Virus record (IMG/VR): IMGVR_UViG_3300045988_124542
Coordinates: 1 to 64,000 of that record
Direction: 5' to 3' (one strand)
From: a virus
DNA: 64,000 nt
Below the pieces are notes generated by a model, which searched no databases, had not been told where the DNA came from, and saw only the letters and a program-made list of their open reading frames with translations. Below are positions 1-56,775 of this stretch, one piece after another (the stretch's first letter is position 1; every line of letters begins with the position of its first letter). The position numbers were made by a program, and so were the translations under genes.

Positions 1-104
1 TCTGAACTTGTTAGAAACAATAATCAGGAGATGGTGGTAGATAGGAATGCCATTAGAGAACAGTTGTATTCAGAAGATTTGTATTAACTAAAAAATAAAA
101 CAAT

Positions 105-455
105 ATGGGATTTATAATCAGAAAGTCAATCATTTATAATATGATGGACGGCAATCAGTTAGAGTATGAATTTGACAACAGGGATTTAGATCATATCACA
201 TTTAAAGGTGATGGTAAAGAATCTTTTTCATTTAACAGAGCACTTGTTGAAAATTTAATTGAGACATTTGAAATCATGCAGAATATATACTCCGATAATT
301 ATAGGCTTAAGGTTTATACTGGTAATTGCATAATTCAATTGAACGTAAATCCAAAGGACCCCAGTGAATCCTTTTTTGACGTATATGATAGAGATGAGAT
401 GGAATTGATATACGGAATAAAGATCAGTATTCTGAAAGAAATGTTTATCATATGA
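105..455 (+). CDS. hypothetical protein
   Basis: 116-aa ORF, first in + strand block, overlaps next ORF start by 4 nt (translational coupling). Confidence 0.4.
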   Translation: MGFIIRKSIIYNMMDGNQLEYEFDNRDLDHITFKGDGKESFSFNRALVENLIETFEIMQNIYSDNYRLKVYTGNCIIQLNVNPKDPSESFFDVYDRDEMELIYGIKISILKEMFII

Positions 456-769
456 TTACTAAACAAGACATACAAGCAGCAGCATCGTATATTTTCCGAA
501 GCAGTTTTGTCTCGGAGGACCAGGCAAGGAAAGCAATGGTAAAAGCCGGCAATAACGCTACCAAGATCCTCGTCAAGACCTTTAGAGGCAAGTTGTTCAA
601 GAAAGCTTTTGAAAGAGCCCGTAGAGGAAAGGATATCAGTTCTTTTGAAAGACAGGAAAAAGAAAGTGGTTTCAATTTTCTACATAATCCTAATAATGGT
701 CGTATGCAAAGCGGTCATATTATAACAGATGGAATTGGTCTGTTTAAACAAATAATTCATGAAAGGTAA
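452..769 (+). CDS. hypothetical protein (basic)
   Basis: 105-aa ORF coupled to upstream ORF; no recognisable motif. Confidence 0.4.
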   Translation: MITKQDIQAAASYIFRSSFVSEDQARKAMVKAGNNATKILVKTFRGKLFKKAFERARRGKDISSFERQEKESGFNFLHNPNNGRMQSGHIITDGIGLFKQIIHER

Positions 770-942
770 AAAAGTTGATATTCGTTTAGGCAGAGGTCTG
801 GCGAATCAGATTAAGATAAACAAAACCATCCCAGTGTCTCATAAACCAAAAGAAGAACGTCGAATGATGTTTATTTGTGGTGATGATATTGCTTCTCTTA
901 TAAAGCGGTTTGAAAACGAATCAAAGTAATATAAAGTAGGAC

Positions 943-1302
943 ATGTATCTTGTCCGATTTTTTTTATATATTTGTGGCATGGCAAGAGGTTATTATTGGA
1001 TACCACAAACAGATGAAACGTTAAATGGCAGAAGCTATTACGTGGCTAAGATAGTAGGAGATATCACGTTTGATACTAAACGAAAAAGAATCGTATTTCA
1101 AGCTGATAGGTATTTCCCTGTAGGATCTGTTTTCCATTTTACGCACAATTGCTTCAACTATATCATAACTTGCCGACTTCGTAAGCCGGGGCTTTGGTTT
1201 GAAGCCAGGAGAGAAGATTCAGGCTCTATTTGCCCTGAAGATATTGAGCGCTTTGAATCGGGAAGGTTTATACACCGAGATGGGTACATGCATTACATAT
1301 AA
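943..1302 (+). CDS. hypothetical protein
   Basis: 119-aa ORF upstream of giant gene; weak hairpin + T-run follows at ~1355-1395. Confidence 0.3.
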   Translation: MYLVRFFLYICGMARGYYWIPQTDETLNGRSYYVAKIVGDITFDTKRKRIVFQADRYFPVGSVFHFTHNCFNYIITCRLRKPGLWFEARREDSGSICPEDIERFESGRFIHRDGYMHYI

Positions 1303-1444
1303 GCTGAACTTGACGATTTTTCGTCAGATTATAATTTTTTTTCATATTATTTTTAAGCCATCAGACTGAGAAGTTAGGTGGCTTTATTTTTTATGATATG
1401 CTTGATTTTTAACTACCTTTGTCTCATAACAAAAATGTTTTACT

Positions 1445-4400
1445 ATGACATCAACGTGTATTATTAAAAGAGATAATAAAAATAAAGTTGTTTCTGTCTC
1501 TACCAGATCAGGGGACAGGTCTATGTTGTTTGATAAAATAGCATCTATTCCTCTTATGGAGAATAGGGAACGGGCTACTACTGTTTTTAAAACCGTATTT
1601 TCTAATAAGTTCTTAAAGGCTTTTGGTGACTGGAGAAAGAGAGTGCCTATCAACAAACCGGCTTATAATAAGGTAAAATCCAACATCGATCTTATTCCGG
1701 AAGCCTATAGAGAAAGGGTGCTGGATAAGGCGTCTAAGATGAGTAACCCTGTTCTTGTGTCAAAATCAGATGCACCTTATGAAATCCAAGAATCGGGCTT
1801 TGGATTTTACAGCCAAGATCTGGGTGATAATATTATGTTGGTGGATGCTATGGTTCCGTCAAGTATTTCCGTACCGGAAGGACCTGGAATAGACGCCGGG
1901 CAGTATCTACAAGATGCTATATCTTCGGACTTTACTCCCGTATCTATGGTACAGGATAAGGGTGTTAATTATATGGTTATAAAAGACGGTCTTAAGATAT
2001 TTAGCCCAGAAGAGTTACCACAGACAGATTCTAATCCTGTGGGTGTAACGTATCAGACCGGAGAGCCTCGTTTGTTTTTCATGAATGATCGTAATCAATT
2101 ATTTGAAGATTACGGAGAAGCTCTTCGCTCTGGCGGGAATGATATCAGAATAGGATTCTTATCAGGCATCGTTCAAGAATCTACCGTGGATGGAGTGGCA
2201 GACATTACTTACAAGGCTGGAAAGTATGTTCTTAATAATCCCAAGTCTTTTATACCGGTCATGACCGCTTCTGCTTCTACTTCTTTATCAACAAAAGGCG
2301 GTATAATTAACTACCTTATAAAGAAAGGTCTTTTGTCCGGATCCAAGATATTCGATCCGGAAACAAGAAGCTATTATATTACAGGAGAAGGACATACAGG
2401 ACAAATTAGACTTTTCAATTCAGCCTTATCCTACACTGAGCTCCGTAATCATTTTGGTTCCGATGTTTCCATGAACGACCAGGGTATGATAACCATAAAT
2501 TCATTGGATAATAGTAAGGTAACTATGAGACTCGCCACCGGAGGAACAGAAAGAGTTAGCAAGGAGCAGATAAAGAGCGATCTTAAGTCTGGAAGATACA
2601 ATGAATTGGATGCTAAATACGATCACTTTGATGCGCTTGTAGTTTCATTTATATTAGAAGACAATGATCTTTATGCTGATACTAAAGCTAAGATAGTATC
2701 GGATTATAGCCAAGAGGAACGTAATCAACGAAATTCTATTGTTGAGATACTGAAAACGCTGGGCGTTAGTGTCGTTGGCATGACCGATTATATAGAGAAG
2801 TACCAAACTAAATACGGACACGAACCTTCTGCTAAGGCATTGGCGGATATTGCCAATAACGTAATAGCAGTCGGTGAAGATGCTACTTTGTCTGACTTAG
2901 TAGAAGAAACAGCACACTTTCTCGTAGAGGCGTACAGAGATCAGAATGCTGTTGAATCTGTTTTGCAAGATGTAGAAGGCACTGAAGAATGGAATCAGTA
3001 TGCAGGTCAGTATTATAATACATACGGTAAGGTATATGAAGGCTCTGAACTTGATAATGCTGTTAGGAGAGAAATTCTTGGAAAGATCCTCGCCAGGGAG
3101 ATGCAGACCGGCACAGCACAGGCGCCGGTAGAGCCCACCTCCTTCCTGGGGCGCGTCCGGCAGCTTCTCTCTGGAATTGTAAACTGGCTTAAATCAGCTT
3201 TATCAACCCAAAGACAGGATTTGAATAACGTTATTAAAAATATTCGTGATCTTGCTATTACCGACATAGATAAAGGATTTGATACTTCTCTTTTGAAGGA
3301 TAATGATTTTACATTATATTCCCTTTCTTCTATGAAGAAGAACAAGTTTCTTGAGTCTAAGATCCGGGCATTGAGAAAAACGTTAAGAGACTTACGTCAG
3401 ATAAGCTCTGATAGGGCTGTAACTACGTCTATGACCCTTGCCCAGCTTAAGACCATAGAAGATAAGATAAATAAAGTAGAGACCGAAATAGACAAGAATG
3501 AGATGGCGGCTGCCATGAACAGCATGATCTCTACAGCCGAAGCTCAGGTCAGATACTTAAGCAATGTGGTGAACACCATCCTTCATGGTGATACCAAAGA
3601 CGGTAAGCTTCATTTCAATACCAATGATCGAAAGAACGTAGATATTATCAACAATCAGGTTCTTCCGATCATGAACGATCTTCGAGGATATATCCGTAAC
3701 AGAAGTACCGAATTTGATGAGCGTGAAAAGCAGGATTATACAAATAGGATCAATACCGTCATTGCCGACATCAACGGTATTCAGTCTGATATTAAATCAG
3801 TACAAGATCTTGATGAAAGTACGTTGCTTGACAAGTTAATGAACGAACTTCATGTGCCGGCAGATAAGGTAAAGAGAGTAAAAGAGTTCTTTGATAAGGT
3901 TCAACATGATGTGTCCTGGATAAGTAGGTGGTTTGGTATATTAGAACATTCCTCCAGCCCGTTCAATAACGCTCTTGGAGCTATGATTGCCAAAGACAAT
4001 TACAATGCGATGGTGAATGCCCAGCCCGCCATATCCGACTTCCTGGCATATGCTAAAAAGCATGGTTTTAACAAATCTGAATTTGAAAAACTGCTTCAGA
4101 AAGTAGACGGCAAAACTTCTAATTACCTTCGTAGTGCTCTTGATATGGCTAAATACGATCGTAATAAGAAGCTGGCGCAGATGCGAGCGTTTGCGACTGC
4201 CATGAACATAGAGATATCAGAAGAAGAAATTGGTGATGTGGTTGACAATAACCGTAATTACGTATTTAAAAGAGAAGTAGTTGACAAGGATGGAAATACG
4301 GTTACTGAAAACGCTAAATTCAAACCATCGTCTGATAGAGTTAATACCGATATTTTTACCATCGAGCAGGAAAAGATTTATACAGAACAGATGGAAAAGT

Positions 4401-7400
4401 GGGATGCTGAAAATTCGGAACTGGAATTTAGCGAAAGTTATGCCACAAGAATGGAATCCATATACAAAAAGGCTGAAGAAGAATTAGGGTATCCGGTTTC
4501 TCAAACAACCAAAGAATACCTTAATGCTCTATCCAGGCAAAAACGGATATTGAGGCAGCCTTTTATTGATAGCGGTGGTAATTTTGATGAGGTTGCCTAT
4601 TTTAAAAGCAGCAATTACGAAGAAGAAGGACTGCTTCGTAAACAACGTAAGGAAGCAGCTTCAGAATACATATATGTAGGAACCAGGAGAGTGGAAAAAA
4701 CCGGCGACCAACTTAAGATGGCTAAAGAAATACAAGCTATAAATGAAGTTTGGAGAAAGGAATCAAATAATGTTACCAATGCCGTATCAGAATCGTTTTT
4801 GCAAAAATTAAGAACGATTCAGAGCGAGTCGGGAGGAGAAGCTGCGCTGAAGACACTTATGTTGGGAGGTCACCTGTCGTTCAATGATCGGTTTTGGAAT
4901 GAAGTAGAATCGGAACAGTCGGCGCGTACCGAATCAAATAACAAGGCTTCGTATCTTAAAATGGCGCATGATATCATTGGTTCTACGACAAGTGATAGAG
5001 ATGCGACTGACGTGGATTCGATTGTGAAAGATATAGAAAAAAATAAGGCCATTATCAAGGAAATAATCGGAAACAACCGAGATGTGGCTGATATCGGAGA
5101 AATTAACGAAGCGACATTTACCTTATCTGAAAGAGATGCTTTTAGGGCCGCATCTGAAGCTATTGAAGCTGATTACGCTATTTTAATAGATTATGCTAAG
5201 ATGGTGGGTCTTGAAGATATTGATAAGTACCTTACTAAAAGCAGTAAGGCCGAAAACGAAGTAAATCAGTCTTATTTAAATGCTCTTGCTGACTCCAAGG
5301 AAGTGGAATGGAAGTTCGTACAACGTCATACTACGGCGAAGAAAGCAAAAAGGATTCAGGCTTTAAGGGATAAGCTGTTTAAGGCTGCTGATAACCGATA
5401 TCTGTTTACCGTATCTGAAACCAACTACCTGTCAGAAAAGCTTGGTATAAGCAAAGAATTAGACGGTAGAGATTTCAGGAATGCTGTTAATGCTAAGATG
5501 GCCAGCTTGTTTTTAAATAATACAAGAGAAGAGGGTGTAGAAGAAGCTAATGCTATTGTTAATGAATTTGCCAGGGGCCAGGTCTTTTCCTACTATAAAC
5601 GCATGGCGCCTACCGGATATGCGGCTATGATCGACAAAATAGGTCGAGGTGAGATAGATGTGGCGCAGATGGTTAAGGACGTGCAAAACGGTACATCCAC
5701 CCAAGATTATGGCATGAACATATCGTACCTGTCTTTCGATCCTGCAAGGGCATGGGTGGCTGAATCTGAAGCCGAAAATAACGGCCGTAATCCTGATTAT
5801 GTAAAAGATCATGGGTATGGTCATCGAATGCCTAAGAAAAGCCTGTATCGTGATGAATCTTATTTCAATGACTTTGGTATCAAGTATGATGCTGACGGTA
5901 ATGAAGTTGCTACTAAAAACGTAGAGCAGTGGAATATGATTCAAAAACTCAAGGAAATAAAAAGACAATCCCTTGATCTATACAAAGAGCAGAGCCCGAA
6001 CCTGTATGCTATTCCACAGATATCAAAACAAGATATAGAACGTATAGAAGGATTGGGTATTAACTTCAAAAATACGGTTCGTAATTTTGTATCAGATCTG
6101 TGCCTGGACAGAGTAGACGATTCTTTATACGGTAAAACCAGGCAAGGAGAAGTGTATGATCCGGAAGACAGACTTAGGTCTATACCTAAATACTACATAT
6201 ATGAATTGGAGAACCAAGATGATGTATCTCACGATTTTGGCTACTCTTATTCGATGCTTATGATGCAGTCATCGTTATACAACGAAAAGCAGAAGTCTAT
6301 AGAGCTCGCTCAAGGACTGGAGCAGATGTTACTGAATAAACAATTTGAAGGTGGTAAAAAGGCTGAAGCAACCCAAGCATATCAGATGTTCAGGGACTTC
6401 TTCAACGATCATTATTATGGCATTAGGATGAACACCAAAAAACTTACGGTGAACATCGGAGGATATACGGTAGACCTTACAAGAATTATGATGGCTGTTG
6501 AAAGATTTATGTCGGTCATGAACTTGGCACTGTCCCCGTTTGTGGCAGCTACCGGCGCCTTAACAGGTCATATCAACCTCATCATGGAATCTGCCGTAGG
6601 ACAGTATATAAGTAAAGATTCCCTTAAATACGCATCGGCTGAATTTTCACGCCTTGCTCCATCTTGTATAGCAGAAACCGGAGACATAGATAGGAAAAGC
6701 AAATTATATGTCATAGGTGAGAGAATGGGGATATTCAATATCCGAAATCGTATGTATGGTGCCGGATACAATAGAGTGGCCAGGACCTTAATGCGTTCAC
6801 CTATGTATGCTTTTATGGAAATCCTGAACTACCCTCTTGATCCGCAGGTTATGATTGCTACTATGGACAATGTTCGTTATTACAAAGGTCGGTTCTACAC
6901 GTTCCAAGATTTCAAGATGGAAAAAGAACGCAATAAAGAACAGAGTACCATAAAAAGAGAATGGAATGCATTAAAAGATCGTACTTTATGGAGTATGGTA
7001 GACGTCGTGGATGGGAAGGTGGTTGTAAAGCCAGGATCGGGTGTTACTGTTGAGGAAGTTGAAACCCAGATGGCTATAACCAGGAATCAAGTCCGTAGCT
7101 TGTCGCAGATATGTAACGGATCTTTGAATGAAGAAAACCGAACTGCCGCATCGCGCAACTGGATAGCCAGGTTCATGACCGCCCACCGAGGATGGTTGGT
7201 GCTGGCGGCTCAACGTCTGTGGAAAAGACGTGGCTTCAATTTCCAAACAATGCAAGAAGAGGAAGGGTTGTCAATTACGTTAAAGAATATGATAGCCAAA
7301 ACATTTAGCCTGGCTTCCGAGTCTGGTATGAAAAACATCATAGATGCCTGGAACGAAAATAAAGACAATATGAATGAGGTAGAAAAAACTAATCTCAAAC

Positions 7401-7867
7401 GCCTCAGTGTCTATGCCGGCACGTTCCTTATCATGCAAGCCGTATCCATGCTTCTTGCCGGATGGCGTGATGATGATGAAAACGAAGAAAGTTGGCTTAC
7501 TCAATTTGGATCTTACGTTGGATTCAGAACCATAAACGAAATAGCTTCACAGATGCCGTTTATTATGGAGCTTAACGTTGTAGATATCATTAACGACCCG
7601 TTTGTTATGGGAAGGAAGCTGAAGGATCTTACCGATCTTAGGAATTATTCACTTGATAAAGTAACATCCGGTACATACAAAGGAGAGTCTAAGCTATTTA
7701 GGCAACTCGCCAAACAGACGTTTATCAAACAATGGTATAATATCAAGACGCCGGAAGACGTAGCGCGCGCCTATAATTGGTGGCAGCAGACAAACAACAA
7801 GTCAATGATGTTCTTCATCGGCGCTACTCCTGATTCGGAAGGAGACGATGACGTTAGTTACAAATAG
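1445..7867 (+). CDS. giant 2140-aa protein, probable virion/ejected (tail or cargo) protein; function unassigned
   Basis: Uninterrupted 6.4 kb ORF; long charged coiled-coil-like central region; C-terminal hydrophobic helices (LALSPFVAATGALTGHINLIM, VYAGTFLIMQAVSMLLAGW) reminiscent of tape-measure/ejection proteins; no polymerase DxDGD motif seen. Confidence 0.85.
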   Translation: MTSTCIIKRDNKNKVVSVSTRSGDRSMLFDKIASIPLMENRERATTVFKTVFSNKFLKAFGDWRKRVPINKPAYNKVKSNIDLIPEAYRERVLDKASKMSNPVLVSKSDAPYEIQESGFGFYSQDLGDNIMLVDAMVPSSISVPEGPGIDAGQYLQDAISSDFTPVSMVQDKGVNYMVIKDGLKIFSPEELPQTDSNPVGVTYQTGEPRLFFMNDRNQLFEDYGEALRSGGNDIRIGFLSGIVQESTVDGVADITYKAGKYVLNNPKSFIPVMTASASTSLSTKGGIINYLIKKGLLSGSKIFDPETRSYYITGEGHTGQIRLFNSALSYTELRNHFGSDVSMNDQGMITINSLDNSKVTMRLATGGTERVSKEQIKSDLKSGRYNELDAKYDHFDALVVSFILEDNDLYADTKAKIVSDYSQEERNQRNSIVEILKTLGVSVVGMTDYIEKYQTKYGHEPSAKALADIANNVIAVGEDATLSDLVEETAHFLVEAYRDQNAVESVLQDVEGTEEWNQYAGQYYNTYGKVYEGSELDNAVRREILGKILAREMQTGTAQAPVEPTSFLGRVRQLLSGIVNWLKSALSTQRQDLNNVIKNIRDLAITDIDKGFDTSLLKDNDFTLYSLSSMKKNKFLESKIRALRKTLRDLRQISSDRAVTTSMTLAQLKTIEDKINKVETEIDKNEMAAAMNSMISTAEAQVRYLSNVVNTILHGDTKDGKLHFNTNDRKNVDIINNQVLPIMNDLRGYIRNRSTEFDEREKQDYTNRINTVIADINGIQSDIKSVQDLDESTLLDKLMNELHVPADKVKRVKEFFDKVQHDVSWISRWFGILEHSSSPFNNALGAMIAKDNYNAMVNAQPAISDFLAYAKKHGFNKSEFEKLLQKVDGKTSNYLRSALDMAKYDRNKKLAQMRAFATAMNIEISEEEIGDVVDNNRNYVFKREVVDKDGNTVTENAKFKPSSDRVNTDIFTIEQEKIYTEQMEKWDAENSELEFSESYATRMESIYKKAEEELGYPVSQTTKEYLNALSRQKRILRQPFIDSGGNFDEVAYFKSSNYEEEGLLRKQRKEAASEYIYVGTRRVEKTGDQLKMAKEIQAINEVWRKESNNVTNAVSESFLQKLRTIQSESGGEAALKTLMLGGHLSFNDRFWNEVESEQSARTESNNKASYLKMAHDIIGSTTSDRDATDVDSIVKDIEKNKAIIKEIIGNNRDVADIGEINEATFTLSERDAFRAASEAIEADYAILIDYAKMVGLEDIDKYLTKSSKAENEVNQSYLNALADSKEVEWKFVQRHTTAKKAKRIQALRDKLFKAADNRYLFTVSETNYLSEKLGISKELDGRDFRNAVNAKMASLFLNNTREEGVEEANAIVNEFARGQVFSYYKRMAPTGYAAMIDKIGRGEIDVAQMVKDVQNGTSTQDYGMNISYLSFDPARAWVAESEAENNGRNPDYVKDHGYGHRMPKKSLYRDESYFNDFGIKYDADGNEVATKNVEQWNMIQKLKEIKRQSLDLYKEQSPNLYAIPQISKQDIERIEGLGINFKNTVRNFVSDLCLDRVDDSLYGKTRQGEVYDPEDRLRSIPKYYIYELENQDDVSHDFGYSYSMLMMQSSLYNEKQKSIELAQGLEQMLLNKQFEGGKKAEATQAYQMFRDFFNDHYYGIRMNTKKLTVNIGGYTVDLTRIMMAVERFMSVMNLALSPFVAATGALTGHINLIMESAVGQYISKDSLKYASAEFSRLAPSCIAETGDIDRKSKLYVIGERMGIFNIRNRMYGAGYNRVARTLMRSPMYAFMEILNYPLDPQVMIATMDNVRYYKGRFYTFQDFKMEKERNKEQSTIKREWNALKDRTLWSMVDVVDGKVVVKPGSGVTVEEVETQMAITRNQVRSLSQICNGSLNEENRTAASRNWIARFMTAHRGWLVLAAQRLWKRRGFNFQTMQEEEGLSITLKNMIAKTFSLASESGMKNIIDAWNENKDNMNEVEKTNLKRLSVYAGTFLIMQAVSMLLAGWRDDDENEESWLTQFGSYVGFRTINEIASQMPFIMELNVVDIINDPFVMGRKLKDLTDLRNYSLDKVTSGTYKGESKLFRQLAKQTFIKQWYNIKTPEDVARAYNWWQQTNNKSMMFFIGATPDSEGDDDVSYK

Positions 7868-8004
7868 ACGAAGAATATCGGACTTGCATTGTTTTTGTAT
7901 GATTCCAATATGTTATATTAGCATCGTCAAAGAGTAGATTGTACGTTTTTTTGTTCTTACTTGAAAGATTATGTAGGTTTAATTTTTTCTGAAATTGTTT
8001 TCTT

Positions 8005-8047
8005 ACCGGTTCTCAGTCAGAGATGATAGGGAACCGGTTTCTTTTAT
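8005..8047 (+). terminator. hairpin (ACCGGTTC/GAACCGGT, 8-bp stem) followed by TTTCTTTTAT; candidate terminator of giant-gene transcript
   Basis: inverted repeat read directly in sequence; lies inside the annotated 5' extension of ORF 7995-8699, arguing that gene really starts at 8081. Confidence 0.4.
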
Positions 8048-8080
8048 GTTGTCAATTATTGCTATCTTGCAAACAAAAAT

Positions 8081-8699
8081 CATGAGACGAAGATTTCAAA
8101 TAGGGATGGGGGTAAATCCCTCGCTTATAATCAATAAAGGCATATACATCCAACATGTAGATGGAGGATTATATACAAAAGAAAATTGGTCTAATAAAGG
8201 ATATTCCAATGATCTATGCAATGGAATAGCTCTTGTAGATAAAGTGTGTTTTGTTATAGCCACCGAATATATTGGCACATTTCGTTGGGGTAAGGATGGA
8301 GAAATAGACAATATATTTGCACAAGATAGTTCTCATATTGGAACTATTAAAAAGGATTATTGGGGGCGTGAAAATCAGAATGCGTATCTTGAATATGATA
8401 CCAGTAATACAGATTACGCTTTTAATAAAGCTAATAGCTATTTATTTAAAAATGGTCAAAATGGATATGTAGGTGGCGCCGGAGAGTTTTTTTTGATATC
8501 ATTGTATGCTAATGAAATAAACGAATGCCTTTTAATGGTAGGAGGTACGATAATGAGTAATAGAATGTGGACATCCACTCGAAATACAAAATCTACCTAT
8601 TCGTGGTATTATGATATAAACATCCAAGGAGATCATTTGGATACAGGTTCAAGGGGTAGTTCACATTATGTCCGCCCTTTTACTGAATTAATTTTATGA
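8081..8699 (+). CDS. hypothetical protein, MRRRF N-terminus (possible surface/receptor-binding-type protein)
   Basis: ORF track gives 7995-8699; internal start MRRRFQIGMG at 8081 matches N-terminus MRRRFENIK of the next gene and avoids the upstream hairpin. Confidence 0.45.
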
Positions 8700-8703
8700 A
8701 ATT

Positions 8704-9153
8704 ATGAGAAGAAGATTTGAAAATATTAAGACAGTTGCCGGCGTCAAGATCCCTGTTTTTGCTTGTTCGATTTCGGCCCCTACAACCACATGGCGAAATC
8801 CTGTACCTATTCTTGGTTGTAGATACCGATCTAATGGAGCAACTATGGCGGCTTCCTATGTTTTAGATGAAATTAATAATAGCAAGGTATGTACGATGGG
8901 CGGTAATCCTATAAGTTGTACGATATCAAATTCTGGACAATATATCCAGGCTTACTTTAATGAAGGACAGGTAACAGGTGATATTATATTACAGTTTACG
9001 ATTGGAGACGTTTTTTATTATTTCTTTATTACAGAAGGATCCAATCAAGTACCTCAACTGAAATTAAGTCCAAGTACTCACCTTATTCATTCAATATATA
9101 AGATAAGTACAATTGGCAGCTTTGTCCCTATTGATACCTATGTAGAATTATAA
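8704..9153 (+). CDS. hypothetical protein, MRRRF N-terminus
   Basis: 149-aa ORF starting 5 nt after previous stop; shared MRRRF start. Confidence 0.45.
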   Translation: MRRRFENIKTVAGVKIPVFACSISAPTTTWRNPVPILGCRYRSNGATMAASYVLDEINNSKVCTMGGNPISCTISNSGQYIQAYFNEGQVTGDIILQFTIGDVFYYFFITEGSNQVPQLKLSPSTHLIHSIYKISTIGSFVPIDTYVEL

Positions 9154-40096: not shown

Positions 40097-41016
40097 GCCG
40101 TAATTTTCTTTAGTTGTGAATACCTTAATCGTCGTTTGGTATTCTGCAAAAATACATCGAATCTTTCAGATTCCGATAGATGTTTCGTGTTATATCTGAA
40201 AGATTCGCAATCTACATATCTTTGAAGATGTTTTCTCGACACCCAGAAATGGGTTCCAGAAATCATTTTCTTCAAATGGCTCCAATATCCTTCGATTGTG
40301 TTTGTTGATCTTCTGCCTATTACATACGCTCCCTTTTTGTGATATACTTTTTGATGATCAAACTTTTCTTTGTTGATCCCGTTATACGCATACCATTCGT
40401 CAGAATATATGGTAGAATTAGGATGAACGGTATTGTATATCAAAGGAAGTAAGGTTTTACCTTTTGTGTCTGTAACGACATAAGCGACAACAAATCCTTC
40501 TCGTTGGAGTGTCCCAAACACAGGGGTTTTATCTTTTAAAGATCTCCCCTGTGCATCTTTAACTTTATCCTTACTATGTCTATTCTTGTTTTTGCCACCA
40601 ATATAAGTTTCATCCACTTCAATCTCGCCTTTCAAACACGGCTCTTTTATTTCAATACTAAAACAATTATGAATACGTTGAAGCATAAACCAAGCCGTTT
40701 TCTGTGTTACTCCCACGATTTTAGACAACTGTAAAGATGATACTCCTCTTTTCATTTCAACAACAAAATAACAAGCCAACATCCATTTTCGTAATGAGAC
40801 TTTCGAATTTTCAAAAATCGTTCCTGTACGAACATTGAAATATTTACCCGTGTTTTTACACTTGTATCTATTTCCTTTGCATTTATACACCTTAGATTCC
40901 GGATCAAAAGGAGAAACAACGTGATCTCCCCACCTTTCTTTTTCAAGAAAGGTTATACACGCTTGCTCATCAGGGAACAATTTTGAAAATTCGGGAAGTG
41001 ATTTAAAATCGAACAT
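40093..41016 (-). mobile_element. IS1595-family (ISXO2-like) DDE transposase gene
   Basis: N-terminal zinc ribbon + HTH (KCKGNRYKCKNTGKYF...TQKTAWFMLQRI) and hallmark GEIEVDETYIGGK DDE block; terminal inverted repeats not identified by eye. Confidence 0.8.
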
Positions 41017-41183
41017 ACTTCTTATCTTTATATTGGATTATAAAAATACAAAAATATATTCATATAACCAACTAAAAATCAATTAAATTCATCGAATATC
41101 TGATTTTGAATTATTTTTTTTGTTGTTAAATTTCTAATTCTTTTCTATTTTTGAGGATTGTCTAACTTAATTGTAATAATATC

Positions 41184-41360
41184 ATGGAAAAGAAAATAGA
41201 ACACAAAAAAGACAAAGTGGAACTTTACAAAGACAAAAACGATAAATGGCGATGGAAAAGAATAGCTCCAAACGGAGAAGTAGTTGGTGCTTCTACCCAA
41301 GGATATGCCAATAAAAGTTACTGTAAAGAGAATGCAAGGAGAAATGGGTGTGATATATAG
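41184..41360 (+). CDS. DUF1508/YegP-like small protein (not in ORF track, 58 aa)
   Basis: MEKKIEHKKDKVELYKDKNDKWRWKRIAPNGEVVGASTQGYANKSYCKENARRNG matches the YegP-repeat pattern. Confidence 0.6.
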   Translation: MEKKIEHKKDKVELYKDKNDKWRWKRIAPNGEVVGASTQGYANKSYCKENARRNGCDI

Positions 41361-41366
41361 ACAATG

Positions 41367-41531
41367 CTAATCATTTGGAATAATCCCCACTACTTCTTCT
41401 GTTGTAGCTCTTTGTTTAACAAAATCTTCTGCTTCATTCCAAGAAGTAGCCCATATTTCACCAGCGTATTTTCGCCCGTTGATTTCAAATTCTGTCAAAA
41501 ATTTCTTTTGTTTTTCTTCTTTTGTTTTCAT
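41367..41531 (-). CDS. hypothetical small protein (54 aa, not in ORF track)
   Basis: MKTKEEKQKKFLTEFEINGRKYAGEIWATSW...; more protein-like than the overlapping + strand ORF 41364-41564. Confidence 0.35.
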   Translation of the reverse strand: MKTKEEKQKKFLTEFEINGRKYAGEIWATSWNEAEDFVKQRATTEEVVGIIPND

Positions 41532-41575
41532 AATTACAATTTTAAAAAGTTAATAATTAATTGATTTATAAAAAG

Positions 41576-41607
41576 AAAGCGGTGATAAACTAAGTTGCCA
41601 CCGCTTT
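41576..41607. terminator. hairpin AAAGCGGTG...CACCGCTTT + T-run, bidirectional
   Basis: read directly; just downstream of lipoprotein gene stop (41629). Confidence 0.5.
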
Positions 41608-41628
41608 TACTGCTTACTATTTTGTATA

Positions 41629-42024
41629 TTATTGTATCCTGTACATTGAAAAGTCTTCAAAATCTCCAGATACACAATCAAGTTTCAGCCAACCTTCTGA
41701 CACCTTTACATCATAAACAATAGGTGGCTCAGGGTCACTATCAAATACAATGACTAATTTCATTGTATTTTTATCAAAAGAGTATGTGAAAGGATCTGGG
41801 CTTTTCTTTTTGCCTTCATTGTAATATACAGTCATTACGCCTGTATCGTCATTATAAAATGTGAGTTCGAAAAATTCATCTGCGGGGAATTGCTCTCCCC
41901 ATGAACCTATTAATATGCTGTTATTGTCATTATTCACATTATCATCGTTACACGAAAATGTGAATAAAAGTAGCAAGGTTAATAATATATGTAGTACTTG
42001 TTTCATGTTATTGTTAAAATTCAT
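41629..42024 (-). CDS. lipoprotein (Bacteroidota-type signal peptide/lipobox)
   Basis: MKQVLHILLTLLLLFTFSCNDDN... Confidence 0.6.
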   Translation of the reverse strand: MNFNNNMKQVLHILLTLLLLFTFSCNDDNVNNDNNSILIGSWGEQFPADEFFELTFYNDDTGVMTVYYNEGKKKSPDPFTYSFDKNTMKLVIVFDSDPEPPIVYDVKVSEGWLKLDCVSGDFEDFSMYRIQ

Positions 42025-42718
42025 ATCCGACCTTTATACTAAATCCGTTCATGTCACCACTTCCATCTCCCCATTCTTCATCAAATGATACCTTTTGTAT
42101 AGAATATCCTATACCTAAATTAACAGCTTGTTTTTTAGTGGTCATAAACCGTACGCCAATAAAAGGGTTACAATACAATCCACCTTTTTTTGCATGTCTT
42201 GGTGCTTCTTTTGTATTGAACTTATACCCTATTCTTAATGCAATAAAAGGAGATATTGGACCATTCAAGGCATATCCTCTCACATCCGCAAATACAGGTA
42301 TGCTTACTGTTGAATAATCGGTCATATAGTGTATGCCGGTTCCACCTCCTACAAATAAATATTGATTGATTTGGCTTCCATATGTAAAATATAATTCTGG
42401 GCCTTTGTATCCACCTGCCCAGTATCCGAGATCAATCATAAATCTACTCCCTGTCAAATCGTACTTTTCATTGGATATTTTAAATGGAATTTTAGATTCT
42501 TTCTCTTCTTTGGTTATTTTACTGATATCTTCCATAGGGTACACAAACGTACTACCATCAGAAGTGCGAATAGTAATTTGCTTGTCTGGTATCTGCTCGA
42601 TAATAACCCCTTTTATAACACTTCCATTTTTTAAATGAATAGCTTCAACCATTTTGTTCTGTGAGTAAGCGCATACACTACCCAATAGAACAACTAACAA
42701 TAATAGATACTTTTTCAT
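42014..42718 (-). CDS. outer-membrane beta-barrel protein (Bacteroidota OMP-like)
   Basis: signal peptide MKKYLLLLVVLLGSVCAYSQ, alternating aromatic/Gly beta-strand pattern, C-terminal ...VGYEF. Confidence 0.65.
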   Translation of the reverse strand: MKKYLLLLVVLLGSVCAYSQNKMVEAIHLKNGSVIKGVIIEQIPDKQITIRTSDGSTFVYPMEDISKITKEEKESKIPFKISNEKYDLTGSRFMIDLGYWAGGYKGPELYFTYGSQINQYLFVGGGTGIHYMTDYSTVSIPVFADVRGYALNGPISPFIALRIGYKFNTKEAPRHAKKGGLYCNPFIGVRFMTTKKQAVNLGIGYSIQKVSFDEEWGDGSGDMNGFSIKVGYEF

Positions 42719-48891: not shown

Positions 48892-49161
48892 CTACTCCCC
48901 CTCTATGGCAGCCTGTTCGTACCTACAAATCCAATCTCCATCTATACAACTATCACTACGCGATAATAAACATTTATCCTTATAACAATCATAAAAAATA
49001 CACCTATCACAACTGTAATCCTTAACGTCTACACAGCTAACTACCTTAGCATATACTATTCCATCACTGCCTTCTATTCCTTTTACCCCGAAAATAGAAC
49101 CTTCTACCTCCTTACTCAAATCTAAGTCAGGCGCAAAGTCATATACGTTCATACCATCCAT
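48892..49161 (-). CDS. hypothetical Cys-rich protein
   Basis: 89-aa ORF. Confidence 0.4.
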   Translation of the reverse strand: MDGMNVYDFAPDLDLSKEVEGSIFGVKGIEGSDGIVYAKVVSCVDVKDYSCDRCIFYDCYKDKCLLSRSDSCIDGDWICRYEQAAIEGE

Positions 49162-49250
49162 ATTTTAATTGTTAAACATCCCGCTTAAAAAAAAATACTC
49201 ACATAATGCAGTCCTCAACCCTTAATCTGTTGGAAGGAACCTATATAATG

Positions 49251-49336
49251 CTGTTTTAAACCCTTATCATATTGAATTTTGTGGAAATGATCTACAGAAC
49301 ACTGTTTTAAAACGCTTATCTATTGAATTTTGTTGG
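49251..49336. repeat. two ~35-bp direct repeats (CTGTTTTAAA.C..TTATC.TATTGAATTTTGT.GG) 16 bp apart
   Basis: read directly in intergenic DNA. Confidence 0.7.
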
Positions 49337-50064
49337 TAGGGAGTGCCCTCCCTCTCCCCCTCTCCAACTCCCGCTAATCCTCCGGCTTTCCGCATAGAAC
49401 CCACGCCCTACCGCCTCACTACCGGCATACGGAGAGCGCTACAAGCTTATACTCTGGCATGGAGTATGGGGGATTTGGAGATAATATCATTCCATAGAGA
49501 GAATAGAGAGACTTCAGCCCACGCCCTACCGCCTGCTCCTCCTATCAAGATAGATATTCAGACCTATAATCAAAGCCAAAAACGAAAAGCAAAAAACCAT
49601 CACAATATTATACTGATCTGGTCCGTACTCTAACATAGACCTTACTCCAACCGATAAAAAATACAGGTCAGCTACTAATAAAAACCACCACATAAAATAA
49701 AAAATTTACAATAAGTGTGTCCGAAAATACGGGTATCATAAAACCTAACTAATTGATAATCAAGCATACCTTATTTTTAAGAAAAGTACAATAAGACTAA
49801 TTTTCAATCCATAGAGATGAAAAAGGCGGCATCCGACACCCTATTTTGGGTCAGAAAACCGCCTCAAGTTTCGTTTTAGACCAATTTTAACGACATGATA
49901 TAGACAAAATACCGGAATTATATCCGAACGCTCCTATTTTAGTTTCGTTTTAGACCAATATGGCTCACATCCGACGTTCACTCTCAGAATATCCTACCCA
50001 TGAATATAAAGAGTAAGATACAAAAATAGGGCTGCTCCGATATTCGAAACAACCCTATTCCTAT

Positions 50065-50271
50065 TTAAATGCTGTTTATGTTTTCCTTCACGTATGTTCG
50101 TGATGTATGGACTTTGCGTTTGCATTTGTCCTTTCCTGTATCGGCATGATACGCTTCTTTGAGATCACGATACAACATAAATTCACGATACGCTCTTTTT
50201 CGCTTTTCTTTAGCTTCTTTCCTGGACAGACCGCGGACGTCTACCATATGAGATTTAAATTTCCTTTCCAT
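50065..50271 (-). CDS. hypothetical small basic protein
   Basis: 68-aa ORF in otherwise noncoding region. Confidence 0.35.
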   Translation of the reverse strand: MERKFKSHMVDVRGLSRKEAKEKRKRAYREFMLYRDLKEAYHADTGKDKCKRKVHTSRTYVKENINSI

Positions 50272-50294
50272 TTTCTTTATGCTTTAATTATGAT

Positions 50295-50464
50295 TAACTC
50301 CATCTATTAAGTGCTTCAATATAGAAACTCTCCGCCTCTTTATACTCATTTTCACTAAGTGTTTCCACCGTCTCGATATAGTTACGCAATGTTATTTTTA
50401 CGCAACTGTTTTTAGATTTATTGAACGCTTCAATTAAAGCGTTGATCATTGCTTTCTTTTCCAT
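50295..50464 (-). CDS. hypothetical small protein (56 aa, not in ORF track)
   Basis: MEKKAMINALIEAFNKSKNSCVKITLRNYIETVETLSENEYKEAESFYIEALNRWS; ATG start, tandem with 50065-50271. Confidence 0.3.
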
Positions 50465-51046
50465 GCTATTATATTATTTATAATTTAGAGGTTGCTCCGG
50501 AATCGAACCGGACACGCATTCCTATCCTATAGAGATTTTATGCTACAACCAACAGCCCGTAATTAGTACGTAGTTCTTTCGTACAGGCTCGTACTATGTT
50601 GTTATTATATTTTCCGTCTGCTACACTATTTCGCCACACATAACGGCATAGTGTCCTTGCGTTTTGATACGGCACGTCCCTACATGGTAGGCTACATGCT
50701 TGTACCCTGTAATTTAATCTACAGCCTTGTTCTATTTTTCGTGTAAGCAAGTAAGACACGTTTCGATCTGGAGACGAACCTCGTACAACGGTATGCTTTC
50801 TAAACTATACTTACATACCTAACATAAACCGCGCTTATTCAACGTAGTTCATGCAGTAATACCAACCCTTTGACTGCCAACGGCAAGGGCCGGTATATCT
50901 ATCCCCAATATATAAAAGAACTTTTTGTTTTGGTAGCTTCTGTCTAAAGCATTCGCGGGACGTGCACCCACTACCAATGGCGAACAGGCGCGTTAAGGTA
51001 CGCGCCGAACCTTTGGCGGACTTAACGGCGTCCCCCCCCTACCTTG

Positions 51047-51586
51047 TTACTGCTGAGTGCTTTCGTGTGCAAGGTATTCACTTACACACTTTGCCACAGT
51101 GCGAATAGAATAAGATTTGATCTTAACAGCCACATAAGTAGCTTTATACTCGTCGTTTTCTTTTATCAACCATTTAGTGCTTTTTTTGGTCTCCAATGAT
51201 TCGGCAGTAGTAAAACCAAATGATTTATATTCGCTACCGTAAACCACATTCTCAGCGCACCAATCAGCCGTTTTAGCCTCAACGCCTTTCTCTTTGTCTG
51301 CATTGGTATCCTTATACACTTTAGAGTATAAAGCAAATTTAACAAATGTATCGTCAACTTTCGGTAACATTTGGCTACACACAGCTACCAGGCGTTTTTT
51401 ATCCTTGGCGAGGGCTGCAACCTTTACGGCGTATTCTGCCGGTATTTCCAAGGCCTTGCAAATAGACTTAAGATCAGCACCATTAGCAAATAAAGCGTTG
51501 TATAACTTTACAGCACCAACCAAATTTGCAGCATTTTCTTTGATAACAGCGTTCTGTAGCTTGTTAATGTTTTTTTTCGTAATCAT
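51047..51586 (-). CDS. hypothetical protein
   Basis: 179-aa ORF, only substantial gene in the 49.2-52.2 kb noncoding region. Confidence 0.55.
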   Translation of the reverse strand: MITKKNINKLQNAVIKENAANLVGAVKLYNALFANGADLKSICKALEIPAEYAVKVAALAKDKKRLVAVCSQMLPKVDDTFVKFALYSKVYKDTNADKEKGVEAKTADWCAENVVYGSEYKSFGFTTAESLETKKSTKWLIKENDEYKATYVAVKIKSYSIRTVAKCVSEYLAHESTQQ

Positions 51587-52065
51587 AACATTATGTATTT
51601 ATTTGTTAAACAAGTGATATTCAATTCAATAGCCCACAACGCAAGCTATTAACAGATACAGATATAGCGTTATCCAACGGATATACTATATAGGTTCATC
51701 ATGTCAGCATGTGTTATCGCTTTAACACATTGCAAATATACTACTTTTATTGTTACTACAAATATATATACTATCTTTTTTTTGTTAACTTGTATTAATT
51801 TCGATTCTATCATCTGATTATCAGCAATTTACAAAACATACAAGAGCAGTATTATGCGCGTACATTAATATGTGGGATATATGTTTATTTAAGTAGCTTA
51901 TAATCAATAGGTTACAATAATACATTGATTATCAATAATTTAAATAAACTATTGATAATCAGCGAGTTTGTAGGTTTGAGGTAAAAACGCGTTTCCGGTT
52001 TTCCAGCGAAGGGGGTGTGGGGGAGAAAACGCGTTTCGGGGGCGGGAGGTTCGTGATAGGTACCC

Positions 52066-52182
52066 CCTCTCTCTCATCACATAAATATTTTTTCTCATAT
52101 CTCTCATCACATAAACCTCTTTCTCATATCTCTCCTATCACATAAACATTTCACCATTCCTCTCCCTCATCACATAAAAGTA
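52066..52182. repeat. four tandem iteron-like repeats (C)TCATCACATAAA with 30-32 bp period
   Basis: copies at ~52073, 52103, 52133, 52165; interleaved TTTCTCATATCTC copies. Confidence 0.75.
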
Positions 52183-52210
52183 TGGGGAACCTATCCAAAG
52201 TTCCCCATAC
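52180..52210. terminator. perfect 11-bp-stem hairpin GTATGGGGAAC...GTTCCCCATAC; terminator for minus-strand gene ending at 52229
   Basis: read directly; T-run on minus strand follows. Confidence 0.6.
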
Positions 52211-52228
52211 TTATTTTACGACCAGTAA

Positions 52229-52621
52229 TTATTTACTTTCCCATATTAGTTTATCTTCGGCTATTCCGATCTTTACTTCCTCGCACTTTCTTCCTATCCA
52301 TCCATTGAGATACGAGAATGGTTCTGAGTTTTTTACTTCTTCTCCTAAGAAATTAAAAGCTTCAGTAGAAACATGGGATGCTTCATGGCAAACTGTTTCA
52401 AAATCAATTATTTTCTTATTAATAAACCATATCAAAAATCCCGTATTAGGATTTAATTTACACCCTCCGTATGGAACGGATACAGTTACAGCCTTGCTAT
52501 TATATACGTAACTAAAATCGTTATTGAAACATTCTACCATGCCAGATACGTCTTTTCCTACGTATATCCACAGATTAAAAGGATAGACTTCCGGATAGAA
52601 CTGATATAATTCACACTTCAT
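52229..52621 (-). CDS. small HExxH-motif protein (putative zinc metallopeptidase-like)
   Basis: CHEASHVSTEAFNFLGEE (HExxH + downstream Glu); last gene of 4-gene operon. Confidence 0.35.
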   Translation of the reverse strand: MKCELYQFYPEVYPFNLWIYVGKDVSGMVECFNNDFSYVYNSKAVTVSVPYGGCKLNPNTGFLIWFINKKIIDFETVCHEASHVSTEAFNFLGEEVKNSEPFSYLNGWIGRKCEEVKIGIAEDKLIWESK

Positions 52622-56396: not shown

Positions 56397-56413
56397 TGTC
56401 TTACTTTTTTTAG

Positions 56414-56485
56414 AGGCTTGTGGCGGAATCGAACCGCCCTACGAGATTTTGCAGATCCCTGACTAAACCACTCATCCAACAAGCC
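56414..56485 (-). tRNA. tRNA-Cys (GCA)
   Basis: cloverleaf folded by hand: acceptor GGCTTGT/ACAAGCC, T-arm GGCGG-TTCGATT-CCGCC, anticodon loop CTGCAAA; no encoded CCA. Confidence 0.7.
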
Positions 56486-56488
56486 ATG

Positions 56489-56560
56489 TAGCCCATGCCT
56501 GAATCGAACAGGCAACTTTTGATTAGGACTCAAGGGTTTTATCCGTTAAACTAATGGGCC
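56489..56560 (-). tRNA. tRNA-Arg (CCT), slightly atypical
   Basis: acceptor GGCCCAT/ATGGGCT, T-arm GCCTG-TTCGATT-CAGGC, anticodon loop GTCCTAA; one C.A mismatch in anticodon stem. Confidence 0.5.
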
Positions 56561-56630
56561 ATTTAATGTTTGCTATGTTCACACACCACAAACACTTAGA
56601 TAATTAACACTTTACACAAAATATGTACCG

Positions 56631-56701
56631 TTATCCAAGGAGGATTCGAACCTCCGCTAACAGAACCAAAATCTGTTGTGCTACCACTACACCATTGGAC
56701 A
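56631..56701 (-). tRNA. tRNA-Gln (TTG)
   Basis: U1-A72 acceptor start typical of bacterial tRNA-Gln, T-arm GGAGG-TTCGAAT-CCTCC, anticodon loop TTTTGGT. Confidence 0.65.
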
Positions 56702-56702
56702 G

Positions 56703-56775
56703 TGGTCCCGGAGGGATTTGAACCCACGATCTCGATGTTATGAGCATCTTGCTTTCACCACTAAGCCACAGGACC
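56703..56775 (-). tRNA. tRNA-Met (CAT) (elongator Met or Ile2 type)
   Basis: acceptor GGTCCTG/CGGGACC, T-loop TTCAAAT, anticodon loop CTCATAA. Confidence 0.65.

Follow-up and report, generated by a model that had tools for sequence, protein, structure and literature searches.

The stretch of viral DNA considered here (the window) comprises 64,000 nucleotides (nt), positions 1 to 64,000 of the IMG/VR record IMGVR_UViG_3300045988_124542. The analysis concerns its interval 49162-52228, where an open reading frame (ORF) of 179 amino acids (aa), named here ORF179 (51047-51586, minus strand), is followed by a structured non-coding RNA of ~520 nt (50489-51012, minus strand). The window belongs to an epsilon crAss-like phage, and the sole GenBank phage match to 49000-52400 is OR575929, a genome of 151,256 bp with ~88% identity. 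This genome is spelled "csAssE-Sib" in GenBank and crAssE-Sib in the paper that describes it; a full-text search with the GenBank spelling returned nothing. Text searches of the two papers on epsilon crAss-like genomes found no mention of the region or of an RNA. All genes around 49162-52228 lie on the minus strand. The first-pass annotation of this DNA had described the interval as largely non-coding, with one substantial ORF and two tiny ones, and had proposed it as a candidate replication origin or regulatory hub.

A search of IMG/VR with the ORF179 protein returned 80 loci with 88-99% protein identity, and coding capacity and conservation were tested on an alignment of 66 relatives, in which diversity was scored per codon position. 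Diversity peaks at the third codon position in 48892-49161, which sits just outside the interval, and in 49526-49693, 50065-50271, 50294-50464 and 51047-51586. With four coding ORFs of codon-periodic substitution inside it, the interval is richer in genes than had been described, and the description was wrong in part. Protein-coding conservation across the region, which had been named as an argument against the proposal, was found only in part: one missed gene came to light (49526-49693), and four blocks (49340-49525, 49700-50064, 50480-51046 and 51600-52230) still show no codon periodicity. The identity of these four non-coding blocks among the relatives is 91-99%, equal to that of the genes.

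The ~520-nt RNA lies in the space that separates the stop codon of ORF179 from the next small gene and is free of codon periodicity. A GC-rich structured element had been noticed earlier at 50940-51046; structured it is, but it represents merely the 5' end of the RNA together with a separate hairpin (51042-51015). The covariance search that had been recommended for the region was carried out, and the covariation supports a large structured RNA. RNAalifold applied to 59 close relatives gave 147 pairs, 18 of them with compensatory changes, and the RNA is placed on the minus strand because G-U pairs are frequent. A more distant alignment of 25 sequences (A4) was fitted to the model and compared with slid controls, in which the partners were shifted by 1-3 columns, and with 500 shuffles. 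Within the 3' domain compensatory double changes are seen in 36 of 72 pairs, and 95.9% of cells are paired as against 33-43% in the slid controls; none of the 500 shuffles reaches the observed values. The helices of this distant alignment covary already in a MAFFT alignment of relatives. In the 5' domain 99.5% of cells are paired, as against 26-46% in slid controls.

The core of the RNA contains an H-type pseudoknot (50727-50760, minus strand) composed of stem 1, CGUGU/ACACG, and stem 2, UUGCUU/GAACAA, with double changes in 5 of the 5 pairs of stem 1 and 4 of the 6 pairs of stem 2. In other lineages stem 2 is replaced by UGAUCU/GGAUCG, UUGUCC/GGAUAG or UACUC/GAGUA, and in the locus designated L090 by UAGCA/UGCUA (L numbers denote loci outside the window). 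Two near-invariant single-stranded motifs, AUCAAAACGCAAGGAC (50668-50653) and GUGUAGCAGACGG (50626-50614), flank a covarying hairpin within 50614-50668 on the minus strand; they hardly differ between lineages in which the ORF179 proteins are 35-39% identical. An optional hairpin of 28 nt (51015-51042, minus strand) stands between the stop codon of ORF179 and the RNA; about half of the relatives have it, and the others lack it cleanly. Where it is present its stem covaries (GGCGGAC/GUCCGCC versus GGAGAGC/GCUCUCC).

The 3' end of the RNA is formed by a tRNA-like element (50489-50551, minus strand) with a closing stem of 6-7 bp, one internal arm and the T-arm UCCGG-UUCGAUU-CCGGA, the anticodon arm being absent. 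Of the parts of a tRNA, the T-arm and an acceptor-type stem are present: the T-stem covaries, and the closing stem pairs in two sequence versions. In the lineage of L083, L084 and L088 the closing stem reads GGCAUAC/GUAUGCU and the T-stem UAGGG/CCCUA. The two versions of the element were aligned by MAFFT according to sequence, not structure, and the support for the closing stem comes from folding of the variants; three sequence variants fold to one three-way shape.

None of the families of Rfam 15, including ROOL, GOLLD and Intron_gpI, matches the RNA at the gathering threshold or at E up to 10, and the ~520-nt RNA is a previously undescribed family. The Rfam scan of the window passed the gathering threshold only with four tRNAs at 56.4-56.8 kb. 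They form a cluster at 56413-56775 on the minus strand (Cys-GCA, Arg-CCU, Gln-UUG and Met-CAU), which is annotated in crAssE-Sib too. Three other explanations of the RNA were tried and rejected. The RNA is like tmRNA in being a large RNA with a T-arm (GGUUCGAUUCC) and an acceptor-like stem and without an anticodon arm, but its acceptor-like stem closes only the last ~63 nt, the G-U pair at 3:70 is absent, the long-range closure AGGUU/AACCU is unsupported in L084, and neither ARAGORN nor the Rfam tmRNA models gave a match. A tRNA split by a group I intron was dismissed because the pairing of AGGTTCG with GCAACCT fails at positions 6-7 and position 6 shows uncompensated variation; no Intron_gpI match was obtained at E up to 10 and no tRNA halves were found flanking the RNA. 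The RNA is not an intron of ORF179 either, as ORF179 ends at one and the same point in every lineage, with a different gene downstream from lineage to lineage.

The ORF179 protein is codon-periodic in its gene, its predicted fold matches no solved structure, and no Rep, initiator or helix-turn-helix family or fold was matched, for which reason a role of ORF179 as initiator or repressor was rejected. Among 1.84 billion proteins it is found in only 37 clusters at 50% identity, with up to 2,680 sequences in single clusters at 90% identity; no relative of P0126 was found in IMG/VR. Nine more distant ORF179 loci, with 30-44% protein identity, were examined, and a gene-free gap of roughly 560-780 nt directly follows ORF179 in all of those with enough downstream sequence; in L085 the gap is only 310 nt, shortened by the call of a 64-aa gene. 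The covariance model R1, which was derived from the 3' domain in close relatives, finds matches inside this gap in L088 (E = 3e-33), L083 (4e-29), L084 (1e-27) and L090 (1e-18), and a second core model (R2) adds L086 and L087 (E = 1e-8). The tRNA-like part was matched separately in L088, L084 and L083. The RNA accompanies ORF179 homologues in five lineages, down to 35% protein identity. It is better conserved than either flanking gene: in L084 its DNA is 73% identical over 172 nt, and ORF179 gives only short DNA matches of ~71%.

The RNA is restricted to phage contigs. A single copy of its core motif per contig was found in 112 IMG/VR and 119 metagenome stretches, while 185,579 bacterial and archaeal species genomes gave one match only. 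This sole bacterial match, L094 (NZ_DXLG01000138.1, 3943 nt), comes from a metagenome-assembled genome labelled "Veillonella sp.", and the 3' end of its RNA is near-identical to that of the window over ~115 nt; judging by its sequence it is probably a mis-binned phage contig. Upstream of the ORF179 homologue, L092 (2997-4001) and L093 (3186-4001) have stretches of ~0.8-1 kb with at most one tiny called ORF. Because of these sparse upstream stretches, the layout of a gene between two non-coding regions is older than the detectable homology of the RNA.

The small genes downstream of the RNA lie on the minus strand and encode 56 aa (50294-50464; diversity 0.032/0.037/0.084 at the three codon positions) and 68 aa (50065-50271; 0.024/0.005/0.106). 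A DNA homologue of the 68-aa gene was found in L083 and L084. The missed gene on the minus strand, of 55 aa (49526-49693; 0.059/0.012/0.146), is hydrophobic by inspection of its translation, and its equivalent place in crAssE-Sib is the annotated coding sequence (CDS) 150800-150985. On its 3' side stands a conserved non-coding block (49340-49525) that is G-rich on the minus strand and has 91-95% identity. Codon periodicity was not found among the 66 relatives for the ORF 50538-50759, which corresponds to crAssE-Sib CDS 556-843, nor for the plus-strand ORF 49343-49633, and in the ORF 51949-52110, at the place of crAssE-Sib CDS 1938-2105, diversity is roughly equal over the three codon positions. 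The first of these crAssE-Sib genes (WOZ57218, 556-843) falls inside the structured RNA and the other (WOZ57220, 1938-2105) over a palindrome and C-rich block described below. Both hypothetical proteins are likely spurious calls, and the annotation of crAssE-Sib is to be mended at these two places.

The DNA upstream of ORF179 is dense in repeated elements, and the repeats and motifs listed by the first-pass annotation are present and non-random. A strong terminator hairpin of the upstream gene block (52178-52212, minus strand) consists of a 13-bp perfect inverted repeat followed by UUUUAUG (z = -5.4). It adjoins an iteron array (52066-52182), in which the four iterons reported before were confirmed as units of 20 nt each at 52066-52178 with a spacing of 30, 31 and 32 nt; at least 7 units occur in some relatives. 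The iteron core CATCACATAAA (at most 1 mismatch) has 6 matches in the window, 4 of them inside the array, against an expectation of 2.2 per window. The array is followed by a block that is C-rich on the minus strand (51975-52064), is 99% identical among close relatives and holds two AAACGCGTTT palindromes 42 nt apart, which occur nowhere else in the window. The mirrored G-rich tracts reported there are real as well (AAAACGCGTTTC at 51984 and 52026). L083 and L084, whose ORF179 is of the P0131 type and ~38% identical to that of the window, retain the AAACGCGTTT boxes together with the 42-nt spacing and the C-run beside them. The boxes are able to pair as a hairpin of 13-15 bp, in which L083 has a single compensatory change and L084 a single mismatch. 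They may act either as a hairpin or as paired binding sites; either fits these two changes. In distant relatives short tandem repeats with a common ATGTG core lie just upstream of the C-rich block.

Closer to ORF179, the AT-rich stretch with its boxes and a 36-bp palindrome at 51926-51961 was found as described, GC being 0.29 over 51501-52000. The operator-like palindromes (51815-51961) comprise TGATTATCA at 51815 and TGATTATCA...TGATAATCA at 51926-51961 and are conserved in relatives; TGATWATCA has 4 copies in the window, all inside the interval. A putative promoter at 51733-51762 (minus strand), ~150 nt upstream of ORF179, matches the pattern TTTG ... TAnnTTTG, which we take to be of Bacteroides type; the match was obtained by a regular expression only. 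The motif TGTTTAACAA, found upstream of two start codons, was considered as a phage promoter motif and rejected, as it is not enriched in the window. Since the non-coding blocks are conserved like genes, the palindromic operator-like boxes occur only here and a structured RNA covaries, the part of the annotation that spoke of a regulatory hub or a regulatory RNA is supported.

The unit formed by ORF179, the RNA and the two small genes is closed by a strong intrinsic terminator (50018-50062, minus strand), a 21-bp hairpin followed by UUUUUG with a folding energy of -27.3 kcal/mol (z = -7.5), in which the changes in relatives preserve the pairs. Past it come the place that corresponds to the start of the crAssE-Sib record (its first base falls on window position 49983 and its last on 49982), two exact 19-mers, the 55-aa gene and a second array. 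The imperfect duplication reported at 49830-49960 thus holds, in the form of the exact 19-mer AGTTTCGTTTTAGACCAAT at 49867 and 49941 (49867-49959). The copies are 74 nt apart, each is followed by a hairpin and T-run on the minus strand, and the first copy is unchanged in 56 of 66 relatives, the second in 40 of 66. The duplicated 17-mer inside the G-rich block is exact in the window (CCCACGCCCTACCGCCT at 49400 and 49518) but is not a conserved feature, its first copy being so in only 25 of 66 relatives. In many relatives 49400-49440 reads GCGCTCTC...GAGAGCGC, an 8-bp hairpin; the window and 24 relatives have a copy of the downstream 17-mer in place of the 5' arm of this hairpin. This looks like gene conversion that destroyed the hairpin.

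The second array lies on the left (49251-49338). The direct repeats reported at 49251-49336 are two gapped copies of ~37 nt, which in relatives are expanded in tandem to 5 or more copies of the 21-nt unit GTTGAATTTTGTTGGTAGGGA. Contig ends cluster at window ~49272-49350 and ~52092-52178, within the arrays, whose copy number varies between strains; 14 independent contigs end inside the left array and 11 inside the iteron array. Because both arrays vary in copy number, the module between them appears as an orphan contig of ~2.75-2.95 kb in many Logan and SPAdes assemblies, and assembly breaks in epsilon crAss-like phages are explained in this way. Each full-length contig carries the module once. 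Many relatives cease to align at ~52178 and resume at ~52630, and in these strains the 130-aa gene 52229-52621 (PHROG 1365, unknown function) is apparently replaced by other sequence; for this reason the iteron array seems to mark a recombination boundary. Taken as a whole, the interval is probably a conserved ~2.8-kb module of epsilon crAss-like phages that is bounded by two variable-copy arrays and acts as one minus-strand expression unit.

The proposed order of this unit on the minus strand would begin with the upstream terminator and proceed through the iterons, the C-rich block with its two AAACGCGTTT boxes, and the TGATWATCA palindromes with the AT-rich promoter region to ORF179, the ~520-nt RNA, the two small genes and the strong terminator. 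The iterons and palindromes would be protein-binding DNA sites that control the unit, possibly with a part in replication or packaging. The RNA would be co-transcribed with ORF179; only ~8 nt separate it from the ORF179 stop codon in relatives without the optional hairpin, and because of this short distance co-transcription followed by processing is the simplest reading. Release of the RNA could be accomplished by the tRNA-processing enzymes, with RNase P acting 5' of the tRNA-like element and 3' trimming thereafter. The RNA and ORF179 would then act as an RNA-protein pair, probably early in infection. It is tentatively proposed, as a reading with a fair share of the evidence but somewhat short of probable, that they constitute a new phage ribonucleoprotein next to the packaging start, which would serve replication, packaging or host takeover.

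Parallels to such an RNA exist. ROOL and GOLLD are several hundred nt long, multi-domain, pseudoknotted and phage-borne RNAs of unknown function, which are typically found beside tRNA genes. The present RNA is likewise a large pseudoknotted multi-domain phage RNA, with a tRNA-like element fused at its 3' end, but it matches no Rfam model, belongs to crAss-like phages of Bacteroidales and is linked to the gene of a 179-aa protein. As in MALAT1-mascRNA, MEN-beta and MHV68, RNase P could be recruited by the tRNA-like element with which a long non-coding RNA ends, and the 3' end of that RNA could be set in this way; those systems belong to eukaryotes or herpesviruses, and mascRNA forms a full cloverleaf, whereas here the anticodon arm is absent and processing is presumed. 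In the crAss-like phage phi14:2 the intergenic regions g004-g005 and g005-g006 near the genome start give rise to abundant, early and persistent non-coding RNAs (10.1101/2020.03.07.982082). Both are crAss-like phages with long gene-free regions, and the three-part layout of L092 and L093 recalls the two non-coding RNAs that flank a small gene in phi14:2; the likeness is an analogy only, as no homology was found. The phi14:2 RNAs have no published structure.

Several observations weigh against this picture of the module and its RNA. Transcription, co-transcription and processing of the RNA are steps that we infer from the DNA. The support for the 5' domain consists mostly of one-sided changes in close relatives, with double changes in 6 of 66 pairs, a number equalled by 115 of 500 shuffles, and the distant alignment is model-fitted, so that its pair counts lean towards structure. 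ARAGORN and the Rfam tRNA model RF00005 call no tRNA at 50489-50551 or in the distant loci, a 7-nt anticodon loop is absent, and in the lineage of the window the closing stem overlaps a neighbouring helix by 3-4 nt and has U-U as its first pair. L085, L089, L092 and L093 have the gap after ORF179, and the covariance models detect no RNA homologue in them. Homology to phi14:2 was not found: R1 gives noise on phi14:2 1-9000, and g004 is unrelated to ORF179.

A competing view of the RNA itself is that it is a cis-acting part of the messenger of ORF179 and the small ORFs, a structured spacer for stability, processing or translation of the downstream genes. Such a role would agree with the position of the RNA between genes of one apparent operon without room for a promoter of its own, with the internal tRNA-like element, which would suit operon processing, and with downstream genes that differ between lineages. 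It is considered unlikely, as 520 nt with a pseudoknotted multi-domain core and near-invariant motifs exceed the needs of known spacer or processing elements, the RNA is conserved above both flanking genes, and the downstream 56-aa gene is dispensable, being gapped in about a fifth of the close relatives and missing in L084. As for the surrounding DNA, the region 51600-52182 could be an iteron-type origin, where an initiator would bind the iterons, the AT-rich DNA would melt, the GC-rich palindromes would serve as clamp or auxiliary sites and the RNA might be an origin transcript or primer. Four phased iterons (three or more phased direct repeats being usual for such origins) lie beside the AT-rich stretch 51501-52000, whose GC of 0.29 is the lowest in the interval, and their copy number varies between strains; iteron copy number often varies. 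The arrangement recalls the iteron-type origins of phage lambda (ori) and the plasmids RK2, R6K and P1, which join phased direct repeats of strain-variable copy number to AT-rich DNA and a GC-rich segment. Here the GC-rich block has 99% identity among close relatives and persists in distant ones, the tandem repeats with the ATGTG core stand just upstream of it, helicase, clamp and single-stranded DNA-binding protein (SSB) genes lie within 17 kb on the same strand, and the interval is the largest non-coding stretch in the examined part of the genome, the divergent junction at 17.4 kb having only 54 nt of intergenic DNA. What sets the region apart from those origins is that it has no recognisable initiator or adjacent cognate Rep gene, as the neighbouring protein resembles none, no DnaA-box cluster in its non-coding DNA and no inflection of GC skew. 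The skew, checked as had been recommended, is negative across the region without a sign change; its cumulative minimum lies at ~17.4 kb of crAssE-Sib, at the divergent junction of minus-strand replication and plus-strand structural genes, and its maximum at window ~9 kb. Since skew in phages reflects the orientation of the genes, this test is weak. A perfect inverted pair of DnaA-box-like sequences (TTATTCACA at 41930/41959) was rejected as it lies inside a 131-aa ORF; around it, window 41000-42100 has low GC (0.30) and skew near zero, and 41016-41629 (~600 nt) holds only small ORFs. The iterons stand between a terminator and a promoter region, where transcriptional control fits equally well. 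The replication origin of the first-pass annotation is therefore not supported; an origin reading of the interval as a whole is weakly disfavoured, and the specific iteron-type model is left with a modest chance, rather doubtful in the balance.

The alternative which the same annotation had mentioned, a regulatory RNA or packaging signal, came closer to the mark. The start of crAssE-Sib was chosen from PhageTerm with p = 1.5e-22 (PMC11054128), and its mapping to position 49983 of the window, which is 24 nt away from the second 19-mer and ~40 nt beyond the terminator, gives indirect support to a packaging function. A pac or terminase site near 49983, for which the 19-mers or arrays would be the repeats bound by terminase, or a long direct terminal repeat formed by the ~2.8-kb module with its early genes, is possible, though it has the smaller part of the evidence. 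Among other crAss-like phages, crAss001 has short terminal repeats and crAss002 relies on pac-type headful packaging (PMC8042965). The two arrays are where contig ends gather here, and small genes of unknown function accompanied by a non-coding RNA are the typical content of a terminal early region. Long terminal repeats that carry early genes are present in T5, SPO1 and N4-type phages. The clustering of contig ends was rejected as proof of a 2.8-kb terminal repeat, since the ends fall inside the tandem arrays and the sample of relatives consists of ORF179-bearing contigs only, which makes it biased for judging contig ends. The variable-copy arrays alone explain the breaks: the ends fall at varying copies and none at 49983, most contigs continue through 49983 and both arrays, and the module is single in each full-length contig. 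For crAssE-Sib, moreover, one "starting point" was reported, not two termini.

Few viruses of the human gut are as abundant as the crAss-like phages, whose replication, packaging and early regulation are poorly known. Should the proposal of an ORF179-linked ribonucleoprotein be true, the epsilon crAss-like phages, a widespread group in the human gut, would possess an RNA class of a standing comparable to ROOL, GOLLD and the phi29 packaging RNA. The module is present in hundreds of assemblies and its covariation-supported RNA offers a concrete experimental target; such an RNA may also explain the abundant early non-coding transcripts of phi14:2.

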